NCBI GenBank assembly: GCA_038841535.1
Contig: JAWBTQ010000018.1
Coordinates: forward strand, 1-24,482
DNA: 24,482 nucleotides
From: Sulfolobales archaeon
GTDB lineage: Archaea; Thermoproteota; Thermoprotei_A; Sulfolobales; NBVN01
Direction of reading: 5' to 3'
The notes below the pieces were generated by a model that saw only the letters and a program-made list of their open reading frames with translations, ran no database searches and was not told where the DNA came from. Of this stretch, positions 1,960 through 20,671 are shown in pieces. The first letter of the stretch is position 1. Each line of letters begins with the position of its first letter. Position numbers and translations under genes: made by a program.

Positions 1960-1981
1960 GCAGGTCTCAGGCAGGTCTCAG
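1960..1981. repeat. Perfect 11-bp tandem duplication (GCAGGTCTCAG)x2 at the IS607 left junction
   Basis: Read directly at 1960-1970 and 1971-1981. Confidence 0.9.
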
Positions 1982-1988
1982 GGTGTGC

Positions 1989-2050
1989 AACTGTTTCGAT
2001 GTGTTAGGTTTATAAAGGTTTTTGTAGGATTTTTTATGTTGGTGTAGGTT
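1989..2050. repeat. IS607 left-end motif array (putative TnpA binding sites)
   Basis: (T/A)AGGTT-like motifs at about 10-bp spacing. AGGTTTTTGTAGG (2016-2028) is the exact reverse complement of CCTACAAAAACCT (3914-3926). AACTGTTTC mirrors the right-end GAAACGGTT. Confidence 0.7.
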
Positions 2051-2052
2051 GT

Positions 2053-2685
2053 TTGGAGAGGTACTACTCTACTAGGGAGGTCTGCGGGATTCTCGGAGTG
2101 ACCAATAGGACTTTGAGGAGGTGGATTAGTGAGGGGAGGATTAGGGCTGTTAACGTCTACGGTAGGTGGAGGATTCCCGAGAGTGAGGTTAGGAGGCTTC
2201 TTGGTCGATCAGTTGAGGAGTTCAAGGAGGTTAAGCTTCTTAGAGCAGTTGTTTATGCTCGTGCGAGTGGTTCCAGCCAGAGGGGAGAGCTCGAGAACCA
2301 GGTGGAGGCGCTAAAGAGGTACGTTGAGCAAAACGGTTGGAGGCTCGTAGCAGTAGTAACAGATGTTGCCAGTGGGTTGAGCGAGGATAGGAGGGGGTTG
2401 AGGAAGGTTCTTGATATGGCTAAGAAGCATGAGTTCGACGTCTTGGTTGTTGCCTACAGAGATAGGTTGACAAGGTTTGGCTTTACCTACCTACAGGAGC
2501 TGTTCAAAGCCTACGGTGTAGATGTGGTTGCTGTCTTTCAGGAGGAGCCGAAGGACTACATGCAAGAACTCGTTGAGGACATGGTCGAAATAGTAACGTC
2601 ATTTGCGGCGAGGATATACGGTAAGAGGAGCCATAAGTACGAGAAACTGGTGAAGTGTGTTGAGGAGTCAACAAGGGATTCTTGA
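2053..2685 (+). CDS. tnpA: IS607-family transposase (MerR-like HTH + serine recombinase domain)
   Basis: N-terminal HTH (STREVCGILGVTNRTLRRW), catalytic YARAS motif, DVASGL, VVAYRDRLTRFGF and ELVEDM..I.TSFAARIYG.RS. Confidence 0.95.
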   Translation: MERYYSTREVCGILGVTNRTLRRWISEGRIRAVNVYGRWRIPESEVRRLLGRSVEEFKEVKLLRAVVYARASGSSQRGELENQVEALKRYVEQNGWRLVAVVTDVASGLSEDRRGLRKVLDMAKKHEFDVLVVAYRDRLTRFGFTYLQELFKAYGVDVVAVFQEEPKDYMQELVEDMVEIVTSFAARIYGKRSHKYEKLVKCVEESTRDS

Positions 2686-3928
2686 GAGAACCATTGTACT
2701 GGTATCACCGAAGCTCACGAAGAGAAAACTCTCTGTTCTCAGCCGCGTCTACAAAGCCTACGGGGAGATACTGAGAGAAGCACTAGACTACATGTACTCC
2801 AAGAACGTAGCCTCATGGGTGAAAGTGAAGAAAGAACTCTACAGGTACTTCAGGGAAAAGTACTCGGAGCTACCATCGCACTACATTCATGAAGCAATAC
2901 GCGATGCATCCTCCAGGTTGAAGTCCTTCCTCAAGTTGAAGAAGAAAGGTCTTGCTTACACGGAGAAGCCAGAGGTTAAGCGGTGGAGTGTTGGCTGTGA
3001 TAACCAGATGTGGAAGATTACTCTACAAGGAGTTTCAATAGCCACTCATACGGGATGGGTAAACGTACCGTTGCTACTCCACAAGCAGTTCTACGGGTAT
3101 TGGAATAATGGTTGGAGTCTTAGAGGCTCATGTAGGTGGAAGCTGGTGAATGGGAGACTAAAGCTCTACGTAGTGTTCTCCAAGAGCGTGGAGACCAGAG
3201 CAAGCTACAGCAAGGTTATCGGTGTGGATGTTAACGAGAACAACGTAACTCTCTTCATATTCCCCGACAATAAAGCAGTAACAGTTGTAACCAACCACAG
3301 CAGGATTGTCCTGGGCTACGCCTACAGGAGGAGAGTTCTCCAGGAAAATCATGGAAACAACACGAGGTCTCTCAGGATAGCTTTTAGGAAGCTACGGGAG
3401 AAGTACGTTAAAAGAGACCTGAGGAACAAGGTAGTATCTCTCGTAGTTAAGGTAGCTAGTGTGGAGAACGCTGTCGTTGTTCTGGAGAAGCTCCTCAAGA
3501 GGTTTCAGGATAGAGCACTAGAGAAGAACGGGCCGAAGTCTCTGAATGCACATAGGCTTAAGCAATCAGCCATCAGAGGCATCCAGAAGCATGTAGTGGA
3601 GAAAGCACTAGAGCATGGTGTAAGAGTAGAGCTCGTAGATCCGAGGAACACATCCAGAAAATGCCCGTTATGCGGCTCCAGCCTAGCTCCCGTGACGGGC
3701 AATGCCCAGAGGAGAGGCTGGAGCCCTAGGTTTGTGAAGTGCATGAAGTGCGGTTTCACCCACGACAGAGACGTAATAGGAGCGTGGAACATAGCTCTAA
3801 AACTAGATGTGAGCCCTGTGCCGTTGGGCTCGAAGGGTGCCCATGACTCCTGCGTGGAGTGGTCAGTGACCACGGTGAACCGCAGGGCTGAGGCACAACC
3901 CGCCCTAGGAAAACCTACAAAAACCTAG
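2657..3928 (+). CDS. tnpB: RNA-guided endonuclease TnpB
   Basis: RuvC-I GVDVN, RuvC-II VVLEKL, Zn finger TSRKCPLCG...KCMKCG and RuvC-III HDRDVIGAWNI. The D-E-D triad is intact. Confidence 0.95.
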   Translation: MLRSQQGILERTIVLVSPKLTKRKLSVLSRVYKAYGEILREALDYMYSKNVASWVKVKKELYRYFREKYSELPSHYIHEAIRDASSRLKSFLKLKKKGLAYTEKPEVKRWSVGCDNQMWKITLQGVSIATHTGWVNVPLLLHKQFYGYWNNGWSLRGSCRWKLVNGRLKLYVVFSKSVETRASYSKVIGVDVNENNVTLFIFPDNKAVTVVTNHSRIVLGYAYRRRVLQENHGNNTRSLRIAFRKLREKYVKRDLRNKVVSLVVKVASVENAVVVLEKLLKRFQDRALEKNGPKSLNAHRLKQSAIRGIQKHVVEKALEHGVRVELVDPRNTSRKCPLCGSSLAPVTGNAQRRGWSPRFVKCMKCGFTHDRDVIGAWNIALKLDVSPVPLGSKGAHDSCVEWSVTTVNRRAEAQPALGKPTKT

Positions 3929-3960
3929 AGCGGGAAACGGTTATAAATGGAAGGCTTACG
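3803..3960 (+). ncRNA. TnpB omegaRNA (reRNA/sotRNA): scaffold overlaps the tnpB 3' end, guide comes from the right flank
   Basis: Nested stems GAGCCC..GGGCTC, GTGCC..GGCAC, CCTGCG..CGCAGG and GTGGTC-AGT-GACCAC. The position is the established one for TnpB omegaRNAs. The same segment is conserved in a second copy at 19.5 kb. Confidence 0.75.
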
Positions 3961-16076: not shown

Positions 16077-17390
16077 TCAATTATTACCTAGTTTCCTCTT
16101 TAAGACCTTTCCCTCCTTTATAACTAAGACTATGTTGTTAGGGTCTAATAGCGTATTTATGTTGTCGAGGGGATTTCCTTTGATTGCTACGATGTCTGCA
16201 TACTTTCCTTTTTCTAGAGTTCCTACTTTATTTTGAAGCCCCGCTACTTCAGCCGCATTGCGCGTAGCGGCTACTAAGGCATCAGCTGGTTTCATTCCAA
16301 TTCTCTCGACAAGCATTTTGATCTCGAGAGAGTTTTCACCATGCCTGAAGGGCCCGCCTATGAAGTCTGAGCCTGCAGAAATCTTTACACCACTTCTATA
16401 TGCTTTTCTAATATTCTCGCAGTGCACCTTAAACACTTCCTCTGCTTTCTTAAGTCCCCACTCAGGATACCCAGCCTTCGATCCTTCCTCGAGTATCTTA
16501 TGGTACGTAATCGTCGTCGGAACCAATATTACCTCTTTCTCCACTGCGAGTCGTATTCCTTCATCGTCTATAAACGATGCATGAGCTATGACCTTTACAC
16601 CTGCTAGAATAGAGTTTTTAATACCTAGCTCTGAGTACGAGTGAGCATGCACGAAGGTTCCTACAGCCCTAGCCTCCTCAACGATAGCCCTAATCTCCTC
16701 TAGGGAGAACTGTCTAAACTCTGGTCTATCCCTTTGAGAAAGAACTCCACCAGAAGCCATGATCTTTATGAAGTCAGCACCCTCCCTCAGGACGTACCTG
16801 GCGGCTTTACGGCATTCATCAACGCCATCACATATTAACCCGGCAAACGGAGATACTAGCTTCTTTGTTGTTCTAACATCAACCCACTCAACGGGTACAT
16901 AGTGGATGTCCCCGTGACCGAAAGTTTGAGTTAGAGGTGGACCGGCAGCAACAATCCTAGGACCTACTACTGTACCTTCATCTACAGCGTACTTAAGCCT
17001 GAGGCCTATGATACCGCAAGCGTCAACAAACGTAGTGTATCCAGCATTAACTAGTGCTTCCAGGTCTCTTGCTGCCCTTAAAAGAAGCAACTCGTAAGGC
17101 GTCAGCAGAGGCTCCTTAACAAAGTCTCCTGTTCTACAGCCAGAGAGATGAGCATGAGCGTCTATGAGCCCAGGCATAGTGAAGCTGCCTTTAAGATCTA
17201 AGACTTCAGCCTCGTTAGGCATTTCGACATATCCTCTAGTACCTACATCAATAATCACTCCATTCCTTATTACAATCACTCCATTCTCTATGACCCCTAG
17301 GTCAGATGCCGTGAATAGTCTAGCATTGACTATTGTGAGAATCTTGTCTTCTCTAGTAGCTTGAGTCACGGCGTATCTCCTTAGCTTCAC
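16077..17390 (-). CDS. Metal-dependent amidohydrolase (Xaa-Pro dipeptidase/prolidase-like subgroup)
   Basis: MPGLIDAHAH, GADFIKIMASGG (putative carboxylated Lys), VHAH, IAHAS, AGSD and GTLEKGKYADIV. Confidence 0.9.
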   Translation of the reverse strand: MKLRRYAVTQATREDKILTIVNARLFTASDLGVIENGVIVIRNGVIIDVGTRGYVEMPNEAEVLDLKGSFTMPGLIDAHAHLSGCRTGDFVKEPLLTPYELLLLRAARDLEALVNAGYTTFVDACGIIGLRLKYAVDEGTVVGPRIVAAGPPLTQTFGHGDIHYVPVEWVDVRTTKKLVSPFAGLICDGVDECRKAARYVLREGADFIKIMASGGVLSQRDRPEFRQFSLEEIRAIVEEARAVGTFVHAHSYSELGIKNSILAGVKVIAHASFIDDEGIRLAVEKEVILVPTTITYHKILEEGSKAGYPEWGLKKAEEVFKVHCENIRKAYRSGVKISAGSDFIGGPFRHGENSLEIKMLVERIGMKPADALVAATRNAAEVAGLQNKVGTLEKGKYADIVAIKGNPLDNINTLLDPNNIVLVIKEGKVLKRKLGNN

Positions 17391-18772
17391 TTACTATTTT
17401 CTTTACTTTTTGTTAGTAGCGATAGTGCTAGTAGTACCGCAAAAGCTATTGGTGCTGAGACTAGTGCTGCATGTATTCCGCCAGGCTTTGCTAATACAAC
17501 ATCCCAAATCACTGTCAAGGCCGCACCTACAACAAGACCCGCTATCCCACCTATTCTAGTAACTCTCTTTCCCAACAGCACTACGCTGAGAAGTACTACG
17601 GTTATGGCAGCTCCGTACATGGTGTACGAGTACATCTGTATTGCGAGAACAGATGGGAAGTACATGCCTAAAACGTATGCTACTACCGCAAAGATGGCTA
17701 TGAAAGCCCTAGTTACAGTGAAAATCTCTCTATCGCTAGCCGCCGGTCTAAACAGCCTTTTATATATGTCTACGGCAGCGCAGGTTGAAGCCGTCAGCAG
17801 GTAAGAGTTTCCGGTAGTTATGATAAAGCCCGCGACTCCCGCTAGGAATACAGCTCCTAGGACATCAGGCATCTTAGTCGACCATATGAGAACCGACATG
17901 CCCGCAGGTATGCTGAAAGCTGCCCTAGAGAAGAAGGCTACTAAAGAAACGAGAGGACCAACGATCAATGCAGCAGTAAGCCACATAATCATAGCTCTCT
18001 TGGCTACAGTATCTGCTCTTGCGGCAGATACTCTTTGCCACATGTTCATCTCCCCAAGAAGTAGTAAGAGCAGAGGGAGGCACGTACTTACGAGAGCTGC
18101 CACAGTCATGCCACCAGTTATGGTTAAGTGCGTTGGTGGAACTTTCTCCACTGCCGAAGAGAATCCACCAACATATGAAGCAGCTGTCGCAACACCTATA
18201 ACTAAGCTTAGAAGCATTAAGAAGGCAGTTATAGCGTCTGTATAGGCTACTGAGACTAGCCCGCCACTAATAGCGAGTAGGGTTATTACTATAGCACCAA
18301 TTATCGTGCCGAGCTCTGTACTGATTCCCGTAGTGACATTCAGAATGTAGCCCAGACCGGTAAACTGGTACGAGACTATACCCATGTGGGCTAGTGCCAC
18401 GATTACAGCGGCTATACTCCTTCCCTCAGGTCCCAGTCTGGATTCGATTATTTCCGGCACGGTATACTTGTAAGTACCCCTTATTCTAGGGACTAGGAAG
18501 TAGAGTAGAGCTATGCCTACAGGCGGCATGAGCATGAACAATATAGCGGGGCCTAAGCCGTAGAGATAGCCTAATGACGCAGGTCCTCCAATAACGGTAC
18601 CCGAACCGAACCATGTGGCTATCAACGTGCCGCCCGCTATTAAAGCCCCAAGCCTCCTGCCAGCCATTAAGAAGTCCTCTAGAGTTCTAACACCCTTCTT
18701 AGTTTGCCATAGTCCTATGAAAATTATTAGAGTCATATAAATGATTACACCCAGGAAGAGTATGAGATTCAT
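17387..18772 (-). CDS. Sodium:solute symporter (SSS/SLC5, PutP-like)
   Basis: DFLMAGRRLG, TLIATWFGSG, YTVPE, GGLVSVAYTD, WQRVSAA and TGNSYLL. The ATG at 18772 follows an AGGTG RBS, so it is preferred over 18781. 4-bp overlap with the amidohydrolase. Confidence 0.92.
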   Translation of the reverse strand: MNLILFLGVIIYMTLIIFIGLWQTKKGVRTLEDFLMAGRRLGALIAGGTLIATWFGSGTVIGGPASLGYLYGLGPAILFMLMPPVGIALLYFLVPRIRGTYKYTVPEIIESRLGPEGRSIAAVIVALAHMGIVSYQFTGLGYILNVTTGISTELGTIIGAIVITLLAISGGLVSVAYTDAITAFLMLLSLVIGVATAASYVGGFSSAVEKVPPTHLTITGGMTVAALVSTCLPLLLLLLGEMNMWQRVSAARADTVAKRAMIMWLTAALIVGPLVSLVAFFSRAAFSIPAGMSVLIWSTKMPDVLGAVFLAGVAGFIITTGNSYLLTASTCAAVDIYKRLFRPAASDREIFTVTRAFIAIFAVVAYVLGMYFPSVLAIQMYSYTMYGAAITVVLLSVVLLGKRVTRIGGIAGLVVGAALTVIWDVVLAKPGGIHAALVSAPIAFAVLLALSLLTKSKENSK

Positions 18773-19420
18773 ATGTAACACCTTACGTAATTATATAGTA
18801 GGGGTCGTATTTAAACTTATGTGTTCATGTGTAAAATCAAGTGTAATTTGTGAAGAGCAGCAAGTAGCGGTAAAACATGCGATTAGACGCTAACAAACGT
18901 TACGAAAACCTACGAAGGGAAAATAAGTAACTTATAATAAAAAGCTTACTTCATGGAGTAATTATTGGCGAACTCTCAACCAAAGACCTCTGGACTCAAA
19001 TTTGGCAGACTTTCTATAGTATACGAAGAAAACAACAGATCTCCTATTATCAGTTACAATTTACTACGTTCCCAATTCAGTTTCGCTCGCGGGTTCCTCC
19101 GTTCTTATAGAGTATGACTGCTATAACGTTGCGGGCGTATAAACGAAGTACTTTACTAAAAATATGCTTAAGAGGAAAAGCCGAAGTTGTAGCTAGCTCG
19201 GGAGTCACCGCATGCGGTCATATAATATCTTGAGCTCTCACCAATAAAACAGTTGGAAAATTAGCTAGCAACCTCAAGTGGTACACGACCAGCAGGCAAT
19301 CTCTGGGGAAGGTAGTGGCCAGCTCCCAGCCATAAAGAAAGTAACTGTTTGCTTAATTAAAATTTGTGGGTCATCTGTATTGATGATGTACTTTAGTTCT
19401 GTAGTGACTATAGCAGTTGT

Positions 19421-19438
19421 AACAAAAACTCTTTAAAG
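19421..19438 (+). promoter_or_regulatory. BRE/TATA-like promoter upstream of the stand-alone omegaRNA-like element
   Basis: AACAAAAACTC-TTTAAAG, with TTTAAA at 19432-19437. This is about 25 nt upstream of where homology to the omegaRNA begins (about 19463). Confidence 0.5.
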
Positions 19439-19462
19439 CGCTTATGGGGTTTATTTCTGACT

Positions 19463-19620
19463 CTAAGTGTGAGCTCTGCTCTGTAAAGCTCTAAGAGCGT
19501 CCATAACCTCTGTGTAGAGTGGCTGCTAGCCCCATGAACCGCAAAATTGAGATACGACCTGCTCAAGAAAAACTAAAAACAACCTAGTGTGGGGAACGGT
19601 TGGCTTATTAGTCTATTAAC
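19463..19620 (+). ncRNA. Stand-alone diverged copy of the IS607 omegaRNA/right end with a different guide
   Basis: 19469-19601 aligns to 3809-3942 at 91/134 identity by hand with one gap. It shares GTGAGC, GAGTGG, TGAACCGCA, AACCTAG and terminal AACGGTT, and shows compensatory stem changes. No tnpB upstream. Confidence 0.75.
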
Positions 19621-20671
19621 AGGGTCCCACGATCCTAATACCCTTGGACCTGAGTCCATCGATTACGTACTCAAACATCCTGCGGTCCGCTCCCAGGAAC
19701 TCCGGAGGTACTAAACCACTTGGGATGCTGCTTTTTGCTAAAAGATTTATGACTTGAACTGCGGTGAAGCCAGTTACTCTAGCCATCGAGGTGCTCTCTC
19801 TGGATGCTTCATCGTAAAGAACATACTTAACTCTTCTATCACCAACCTCCCCGAAGACCTCCATTATAGACATGTCAGCGATTTCGTAAGTCATGTGCGG
19901 TGCTATAATCTCGAGAGTGCGACCTAGGTGCTTGCTGTCGAGGAAGCCTAGCTCTTTAAGCACTCTCATTCTCAACAAGTGTCCGGGCCATCGCAAAGTA
20001 TACTCAGCCATGTTTTTTGCTTTAATAGTGTGCAGCATTGTTCTAAGTCCGTCTGTCGGAAACCTCTCTAAGTCGAAGCCTAAAATCCGCACTCTCTCTA
20101 TGACACCGAGAGGATCTATGGATACTACCGCACCATCTTTGACTATTCTCGCAGGTCTTAAGTACTCATCTATTAAGTCGGCTAGAGAGAAGAGAACTGC
20201 GTGATATAGAGGGGGCCTAGGTTCTTTGGGTAGACCCCCTACATTAATTTCAACTCTATCGAGATCTCCTAGCTCGCCGTGTATTCTACCAACAACCATA
20301 TTACTAAGCCCTGGAGCAAAACCTGCGTCAACAACGACAGTTATTCCCGCTTTCTCTATAGCCTCCCTCAGCGGAACCGGGTCTTCCGGCATAAACGATA
20401 TGTCGACAAGGTCTTTCCGCATCTTAATGCATGCCAGTAATACTCTATAGCCTAAGCTCCCGGGGAGCGCGTTAACCACGATGTCAAATCCCTTAATGGA
20501 CTCTAGTAAGTAGCTCTCCCTACTTAAATCTACTTGAAGGATCGAAGCCGCTTGCTTAAGGGGTTCAAGACTTTCTTTACTCTTGTCCGCCACACTAACG
20601 TCGTAGAGTTTACTTAATTCAAGAGCCACTAGCGACCCAACCCTCCCAGCTCCAAGAACTATAAAGCGCAC
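19616..20671 (-). CDS. Saccharopine dehydrogenase family protein, L-lysine 6-dehydrogenase-like
   Basis: GAGRVG Rossmann motif, NALPG, DISF, DAGFAPGLSN, VGGLP, LIDEY.RPA, TDGLRT and TLRWPGH. GGTGA RBS before the GTG start. Confidence 0.88.
   Translation of the reverse strand: MRFIVLGAGRVGSLVALELSKLYDVSVADKSKESLEPLKQAASILQVDLSRESYLLESIKGFDIVVNALPGSLGYRVLLACIKMRKDLVDISFMPEDPVPLREAIEKAGITVVVDAGFAPGLSNMVVGRIHGELGDLDRVEINVGGLPKEPRPPLYHAVLFSLADLIDEYLRPARIVKDGAVVSIDPLGVIERVRILGFDLERFPTDGLRTMLHTIKAKNMAEYTLRWPGHLLRMRVLKELGFLDSKHLGRTLEIIAPHMTYEIADMSIMEVFGEVGDRRVKYVLYDEASRESTSMARVTGFTAVQVINLLAKSSIPSGLVPPEFLGADRRMFEYVIDGLRSKGIRIVGPC

Follow-up and report, generated by a model that had tools for sequence, protein, structure and literature searches.

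Does an omegaRNA scaffold that stands apart from its nuclease gene act as a guide for that nuclease in trans, or is it what an insertion sequence (IS) has left behind? This question is raised by a locus in the 24,482-nucleotide stretch analysed here, contig JAWBTQ010000018.1 of the Sulfolobales archaeon assembly GCA_038841535.1 (contig C18 in our numbering; hereafter the window). The window carries an intact IS607-family element at 1981–3940 and, 15.5 kb downstream on the same strand, a second copy of its right end without tnpB (hereafter the orphan). An earlier note, made from the sequence alone, had read the orphan as a structurally conserved, independently transcribed guide cassette able to reprogram the TnpB of that element. 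We consider the orphan to be probably a drifting and decaying solo right end, and a trans-acting function to be unlikely; the earlier interpretation as a whole was partly supported.

A right end without its element

The two scaffold copies compared are the following.

19464–19599, + strand: solo right end, a tnpB-less copy of an IS607-type omegaRNA scaffold with the 3′ end GGGGAACGG; identified by blastn, nhmmer and covariance model R2, with 34 of 41 pairs kept.
3804–3940, + strand: cognate omegaRNA scaffold and IS right end, which overlaps the final 41 tnpB codons; R2 score 167.3 bits, 41 of 41 pairs, fold −57.7 kcal/mol (z −3.56).

From the blastn alignment of 19468–19601 with 3808–3942, we observed 68.9% identity over 135 columns with one gap (E 9.7e-8), which confirms the homology to the IS right end described before. 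With the IS right end as the sole query, nhmmer recovered the orphan at E 1.5e-13. The covariance model R2, which was trained only on copies from other contigs and with the window excluded, scored it at 91.8 bits (E 1.3e-27, span 19456–19601). The homology begins at the first hairpin, TAAGTGTGAGC, at 19464 and ends at AACGG/TT between 19599 and 19600, where the slash marks the transposon boundary; the IS copy ends at the same motif, and both limits are those proposed earlier. Thus, the orphan is a homologue of the right end on the scale of 135 nt, as expected of a TnpB omegaRNA scaffold, and it is followed directly past the boundary by a copy-specific flank, the flanks differing among the copies listed as the earlier note had seen for this pair. 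The old tnpB frame is interrupted in the orphan by three stops, the first being the TAA at 19484–19486 that had been pointed out before, and by a 1-nt deletion. No Rfam family matched at its gathering threshold anywhere in the window, and a tRNA scan found none.

Next to the scaffold, on its upstream side, we found neither a left end nor coding sequence. A hidden Markov model (HMM) of the left end plus the middle part gave no match on the + strand of 18700–19700 at E ≤ 10 with filters off, and the left-end HMM matched 22 places in the genome at E ≤ 1, none of them near the orphan. In local alignments with shuffled controls, the 120 nt upstream of the orphan resembled those of 26 other copies with a best z of 2.16. 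Relaxed tblastn with TnpA and TnpB reached at best an E of 0.77, within the scaffold itself, and found no tnpA or tnpB upstream, in agreement with the earlier remark that no tnpB sequence lies there. From these results we regard the orphan as a solo right end and not as a miniature element: protein-less elements of the miniature inverted-repeat transposable element (MITE) or PATE-like kind keep both ends with no gene between them, which the orphan does not, and occur in multiple dispersed copies, which its scaffold does, with 41 model matches in the genome. A left end placed near 19340 by MAFFT, which would have made the orphan a full miniature element, was rejected by both HMMs, by the shuffled local alignments and by relaxed tblastn.

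Such a solo right end would be the scaffold part of an IS607-family tnpA–tnpB element, or of its protein-less derivative made of a left end plus a right end. With the left end and all coding sequence lost, TnpA would be unable to excise or move it, and from the need for both ends we infer that the orphan is immobile.

Pairing, folding and base composition of the orphan

The structure against which the orphan was judged is a 41-pair, six-helix model obtained by RIBOSUM alifold on the 8 closest copies and then counted on 18 copies; owing to this derivation it is biased towards IS-type copies. Default RNAalifold gave no structure on 27 copies and just 16 pairs on 18 copies. Among the 18 copies, 84.8% of the cells are paired, compared with 37–43% when the partners are slid by 1–3 columns. 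Two-sided changes were observed at 19 pairs, compared with 5–13 in the slid controls and a mean of 12.9 in shuffles, of which 4 out of 500 reached 19. These counts support the 41-pair structure of the family, with the reservation that it was derived from a subset of the same sequences.

The helices named in the earlier note are present at their places: the hairpin GGTCAGTGACC at 3861–3871 of the IS corresponds to GGCTGCTAGCC at 19521–19531 of the orphan, and the stem GAGCC/GGCTC to GAGCT/AGCTC. These changes had been taken as signs of a conserved structure. We counted 5 compensatory changes in the orphan against 2.76 expected, which is not significant (p 0.10). Of its 41 consensus pairs 7 are broken, 5 of them as C.A mismatches. 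Its minimum free energy, −27.6 kcal/mol, has a z-score of +0.27 and is matched or bettered in 126 of 200 shuffles; the scaffold of the IS has a z-score of −3.56 (0 of 200 shuffles as good) and a miniature copy one of −2.30. The parameters used for these energies are those of 37 °C; the organism comes from hot springs, and the sequencing runs with its DNA carry the label hot springs metagenome. Structure contributes 25 bits to the model score of the orphan and 48.5 bits to that of the IS copy, a rough comparison as the models are weighted differently. The description of the orphan as structurally conserved is partly supported: it holds for the number of retained pairs, which is weighed below, and is not borne out by compensation, folding, the kind of breaks and base composition.

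Base composition is a further sign of decay. The GC content of the orphan is 0.46 over the aligned columns and 0.47 over 19464–19599, close to the mean of 0.464 for the genome, which comprises 1.56 Mb in 40 contigs. Among the other aligned copies, 16 of 17 have a GC content of 0.54–0.61, the exception being C6_21033 with 0.47. Relative to the family consensus, the orphan carries 31 GC-to-AT changes, 9 AT-to-GC changes and 7 others; no other of the ten divergent copies compared has so skewed a ratio. Such a bias accounts for the seeming compensation, as two independent transitions convert a C-G pair into T-A, and a single G-to-A transition leaves a C.A mismatch. Neither in the orphan's own genome nor among 40 relatives did any copy exceed 76% identity to it.

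It is likely that the RNA structure was under selection in the ancestral lineage, and that the orphan then drifted to the base composition of the genome and lost stability. Descent from a structure-selected lineage explains the pairs that survive. The alternative that the earlier note had itself set against its proposal, descent from a sister element that had diverged, with stem-breaking decay afterwards, fits these data best.

The scaffold family and its likely autonomous member

The IS in the window is likely the only autonomous relative in the assembly. Its features are given below.

1981–3940, + strand: intact IS607-family element; its ends are where homology to four miniature copies stops, the left end being matched by the HMM at 1968–2030 (E 4e-8) and the right end being AACGG/TT.
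2009–2016, + strand: TATA box TTTATAAA within the left end, conserved in left-end alignments and also found upstream of the scaffold in miniature copies; a putative promoter.
2053–2685, + strand: tnpA, IS607-type serine recombinase; NF033518 212.5 bits (cut-off 110), Pfam Resolvase and HTH_17.
2657–3928, + strand: tnpB, 423 aa, open frame without stops; Pfam Cas12f1-like TNB domain (E 5.9e-17), NF040570 99.7 bits, just below the cut-off of 100.

The TnpA thus has the serine-recombinase domain and N-terminal helix-turn-helix of the IS607 family, and the TnpB is intact, as had been stated before. The putative junctions of most copies read A/GGG... on the left and ...AACGG/T on the right, as judged from the copies themselves. 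They agree with the GG core of IS607 integration on the account given in 10.1101/2023.11.20.567912.

The genome was searched with a covariance model, as the earlier note had proposed. In the genome, whose assembly is 84% complete so that all copy counts are lower bounds, 41 matches were obtained at E ≤ 0.01 both after three rounds of nhmmer and with the covariance model, and in the latter the orphan ranks 16th. From the nhmmer set, 27 copies cover at least 90 of the 134 model positions ('near-full'). A same-strand left-end partner was found for 19 of these 27 (16 at E ≤ 0.0013 and 3 weak ones at E 0.049–0.069), by an HMM built partly from the left ends that it then counted; 8 have none, the orphan being among them. 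The copies paired with a left end are mostly protein-less miniature elements of roughly 240–300 nt, and fall into a shorter and a longer type.

C26:1391–1636, C2:51046–51287, C1:223145–223382 and C1:128478–128747 (loci L015, L011, L014 and L013): four short miniature elements.
C8:39736–40014, C5:88295–88572, C7:43675–43964 and about seven more (loci L018–L028): longer miniature type, with a left end, about 100 nt like the left end and tnpA start of the IS, and a scaffold.

The four short elements, of about 240–270 nt, consist of a left end of about 55 nt with the TTTATAAA box, a short linker and a scaffold ending in GGGAAACGG or GGGAAACGA; judging from this layout, the left-end promoter would read directly into the scaffold. 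The longer elements number about ten and measure about 280–300 nt; a 150-nt stretch before their scaffold corresponds to the IS left end together with the beginning of tnpA. The left parts of the trio on C8, C5 and C7 are 88–91% identical and their scaffolds just 72–82%, which suggests either mosaic recombination or a faster change of the scaffold. In the alignment of left-end-bearing copies, a GTGATGA-like motif, often present twice, stands about 25–35 nt past the left-end TATA box. We take this motif to resemble a C-box/kink-turn motif; alternatively, it may be a remnant of the start region of tnpA.

A distant subfamily of the scaffold comprises C3:92987–93128, C7:923–1064, C10:43069–43216, C5:65726–65879 and C7:49419–49566. 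The sequence HMM matches only the first ~50 positions of these copies, and the covariance model matches them at full length; their 3′ end reads ...ACAAACGG, followed across the boundary by T.

The nuclease gene is far less numerous than the scaffold. With tblastn we found two close tnpB genes in the genome, the intact one of the window and a 5′-truncated one at C1:41376–40341. The latter belongs to a 5′-truncated IS copy at C1:40324–41993 (tnpB residues 79–423 in two frames), which stands head-to-head with a scaffold without a left end at C1:41849–41993. The remaining tnpB genes (C19, C17 and distal C9) do not exceed 36% identity, and their positions have no scaffold match, out of the 41, on or beside them. 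A related-locus search with TnpB in a collection of genome contigs found no relative. The layout behind the proposal of one nuclease with several guides is therefore present, with a tnpB-less scaffold ending at the boundary, 41 scaffolds with different flanks, and one intact plus one truncated tnpB; the proposal stood to this extent.

Among 41 related genomes, 29 have matches to the scaffold model at E ≤ 0.001, for example G002 with 52, G005 with 33, G003 with 28 and G007 with 21. The two nearest relatives, both of the same genus, bear on the fate of such scaffolds, and near-perfect copies are among their matches. The 52 matches in G002 reach 168.9 bits, with many above 115 bits, and its best TnpB match is 40% identical. 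In G007, the best TnpB match spans just residues 378–423, the last 46, a part that overlaps the scaffold. As these two assemblies are 87% and 80% complete, respectively, a close full-length tnpB was 'not found' in them and is not to be read as 'absent'. The retention of high-scoring scaffolds in both without a close full-length tnpB points to scaffold persistence that is independent of the nuclease, and suggests that scaffolds may outlive it.

Competing readings and known systems

Whether the orphan could be expressed and guided depends on its surroundings, an 834-nt spacer between two minus-strand genes.

17387–18781, − strand: sodium:solute symporter gene, on the upstream side of the spacer.
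19432–19437, + strand: TATA-like hexamer TTTAAA, 27–32 nt before the scaffold; one of 2 TTTAWA motifs on the + strand of the spacer.
19600–19619, + strand: 3′ flank directly past the transposon boundary, the would-be guide if transcribed; the next gene's stop codon falls within it.
19616–20671, − strand: saccharopine-dehydrogenase-like gene, stop codon 19616–19618.

Of the TATA-like element and own promoter claimed earlier, the hexamer is there; the promoter comes down to this one motif, and the left-end TATA box seen upstream of the scaffold in miniature copies is not present. The TTTAAAG box was also aligned by eye with a hairpin-like segment of other copies and with the D-V-I-G-A codons of the IS tnpB; the alignment had no statistical support and was discarded. 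In one metatranscriptome run (X13), contigs lie on both neighbouring genes and none over 18786–19717; contigs of this kind cannot show absence. Read-through, or a chance TTTAAA box, would yield an RNA with the flank as its guide. Allowing up to 3 mismatches, the 20-mer 19600–19619 occurs nowhere else in the genome; its first 16 nt occur nowhere else at up to 2 mismatches, and at 3 mismatches in scattered sites only. The viral contigs, in which the earlier note would have looked for a target, contained no exact match to the 20-mer. This result is the one expected for any right end beside a gene. Since the sole matching DNA in the genome is the flank of the orphan itself, and the 5′ neighbour of that flank is the transposon end and not the original flanking DNA, no cleavage and no function would be expected. 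In addition, on the published model of homing by the nuclease, as far as the sources at hand describe it, an orphan without a left end would not be excised and would leave no empty site for the nuclease to act on.

The best competitor of the solo right end is a working stand-alone guide gene, in which a scaffold transcribed from TTTAAA would load the TnpB of 2657–3928 in trans and target DNA matching 19600–19619, for example an insertion-free allele that enters by DNA exchange. We regard this as unlikely, and the following points nevertheless weigh against a relic. Nothing is missing from the scaffold between the first hairpin and the boundary motif GGGGAACGG, and it is not randomly truncated; the other copies without a left end mostly begin at model positions 1–13 as well. 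It keeps 34 of 41 consensus pairs compared with 28.7 expected from a shuffle that preserves the substitution spectrum (p 0.009), its paired columns are more conserved than the unpaired ones (0.72 vs 0.62), and its 91.8 bits come from a model that did not have it in the training set. The box at −27 to −32 has the spacing of an archaeal start at the 5′ end of the scaffold; two such motifs in 834 nt amount to a chance of ~4% per 15-nt window, a value that rises with looser motifs. The same contig encodes an intact cognate TnpB, and the incomplete assembly makes the counts minima. Finally, stand-alone omegaRNAs work in trans in other OMEGA systems on the account in PMC10691335, protein-less elements bearing omegaRNAs have been described, and for Halobacterium, PMC4615843 reports a probable sense overlapping transcript RNA (sotRNA) of a tnpB pseudogene that is truncated and 120 bp long.

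Set against the guide gene are the fold, which is no better than that of shuffles at 37 °C parameters for this hot-spring organism (z +0.27), the GC content at the genome mean with its 31:9 bias from GC to AT, and the compensatory count (p 0.10). The orphan is also 31% diverged from the scaffold of the sole intact TnpB, and neither the genome nor the viral contigs offered a second target. Its left end is gone, so that no excision would occur and no empty site would arise in the cell, and relatives retain scaffolds without a close tnpB. On balance, we prefer the solo right end.

An extension of the guide-gene idea to the whole family is quite improbable in our view. Here, one IS607 TnpB would be served by dozens of dispersed guide modules, the left-end TATA box being fused to the scaffold in the miniatures, and the copies without a left end would be kept as transcribed and loaded guides, each tying the nuclease to a single place in the chromosome. 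The result would be an archaeal multi-guide system of transposon origin, directed at incoming alleles or variant ones in the course of DNA exchange. If this were true, an active orphan would be a natural case of one archaeal TnpB programmed by many loci, with a bearing on the origin of CRISPR-like arrays from transposon ends. The evidence points the opposite way, to a drifting relic.

It is very unlikely that the orphan persists as an antisense or cis-regulatory by-product, whereby + strand transcription through the relic would enter the 3′ end of the saccharopine-dehydrogenase-like gene in antisense and affect its mRNA independently of TnpB. The geometry is what suggests it, as the scaffold faces the stop codon of the gene 17 nt off and the flank overlaps that codon; any insertion behind a gene gives the same geometry, however, and the family alignment offers no pointer to such a role.

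Even less credit is due to the idea that the orphan serves as an alternative outer end, pairing with the IS's left end (1981) so that TnpA would move the whole 17.6-kb segment. The orphan does lie on the same strand and contig as the IS, 15.5 kb downstream of it, and retains the boundary motif. But given 41 copies spread over 1.56 Mb, chance alone is estimated to place one on the same strand within 15.5 kb about one time in three. The locus is unchanged in three further runs (X8, X9 and X11), whose DNA contigs span the orphan, differ from it at 0 positions and show no joints. Chance resemblance, or an unrelated structured RNA, had no support and was rejected by the homology statistics (E 1.5e-13 and 1.3e-27) and by the boundary motif common to 40 other copies.

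The concept of such modules is already published, for stand-alone omegaRNAs, for protein-less carrier elements and for a transcript of a truncated archaeal tnpB. Stand-alone omegaRNAs without an effector, active in trans, were described by Altae-Tran et al. (2021), as related in PMC10691335. Like the orphan, these are scaffolds without nuclease or transposase, in genomes where an effector-bearing locus is also found, and their own flank is the guide. On that account, they were evidently mobilised and their trans activity was demonstrated, whereas the orphan is IS607-type, archaeal and decayed, and has neither a left end nor a near-identical sister.

The miniature copies of this genome have closer parallels than the orphan. 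In the preprint of Meers et al. (2023; 10.1101/2023.03.14.532601), in so far as its text bears on this point, PATE-like protein-less IS200/IS605 elements often encode omegaRNAs that need TnpB in trans. The miniatures with both ends share with them the ends plus a scaffold, the lack of a gene and the dependence on TnpA and TnpB in trans. The PATE-like elements move by a tyrosine (HUH) TnpA and have palindromic ends on that account, whereas the copies here are of the serine-recombinase IS607 type with a putative GG-type junction; the orphan, being a right end only, lacks the two ends that define this class. For Staphylothermus marinus, fourteen MITE copies of ~260 nt tied to IS607-family elements were reported in PMC2678158 (2009, before omegaRNAs were known). 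Compared by their description there, they resemble the miniatures in size, in the related archaeal group and in DNA similarity to the IS607 family; they were defined by inverted repeats and by similarity to the sequence that precedes the transposase genes.

The nearest archaeal parallel to the orphan itself is the remnant in Halobacterium salinarum, from which PMC4615843 describes a probable sotRNA. According to this description, it is likewise archaeal, little remains beyond the 3′ end of tnpB and the right end, and its persistence was proposed to be due to the RNA. It differs in having transcript evidence and in being IS1341/IS605-type, whereas the orphan is IS607-type and known from its sequence alone. 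The texts covered by a literature search gave no direct description of omegaRNA-bearing IS607 miniature elements in archaea beyond the Staphylothermus MITEs.

The present work provides a 41-pair model of an IS607-type scaffold, the census of 41 copies and the 29 of 41 genomes with matches. As most copies are miniatures of a left end plus a scaffold, this clade is convenient for testing the use of omegaRNAs in trans.

Some minor observations concern the surroundings of the orphan. In 8 genomes of the same genus, the ~1.3–1.5 kb downstream of the orthologous saccharopine-dehydrogenase-like gene contain no scaffold; in a ninth (G003, locus L006), only ~340 nt downstream of the gene are covered. 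Further upstream in the spacer, 18825–18925 resembles the tail of the right end (AAAACCTACGAA...GGGAAAA), a likeness that is not significant (tblastn E 2.7, no HMM match); chance may explain it, or another relic at a much more advanced stage of decay. The saccharopine-dehydrogenase-like gene (window 19613–19630) ends in ...VGPC-TAA with a TAG immediately next. This TAG aligns with the stop codon in G002, where the orthologue finishes with ...ERLLK; the stop used here is thus one codon early, 13–16 nt from the transposon end, and the distance from the end of the orphan to the ancestral stop codon is 13 nt.

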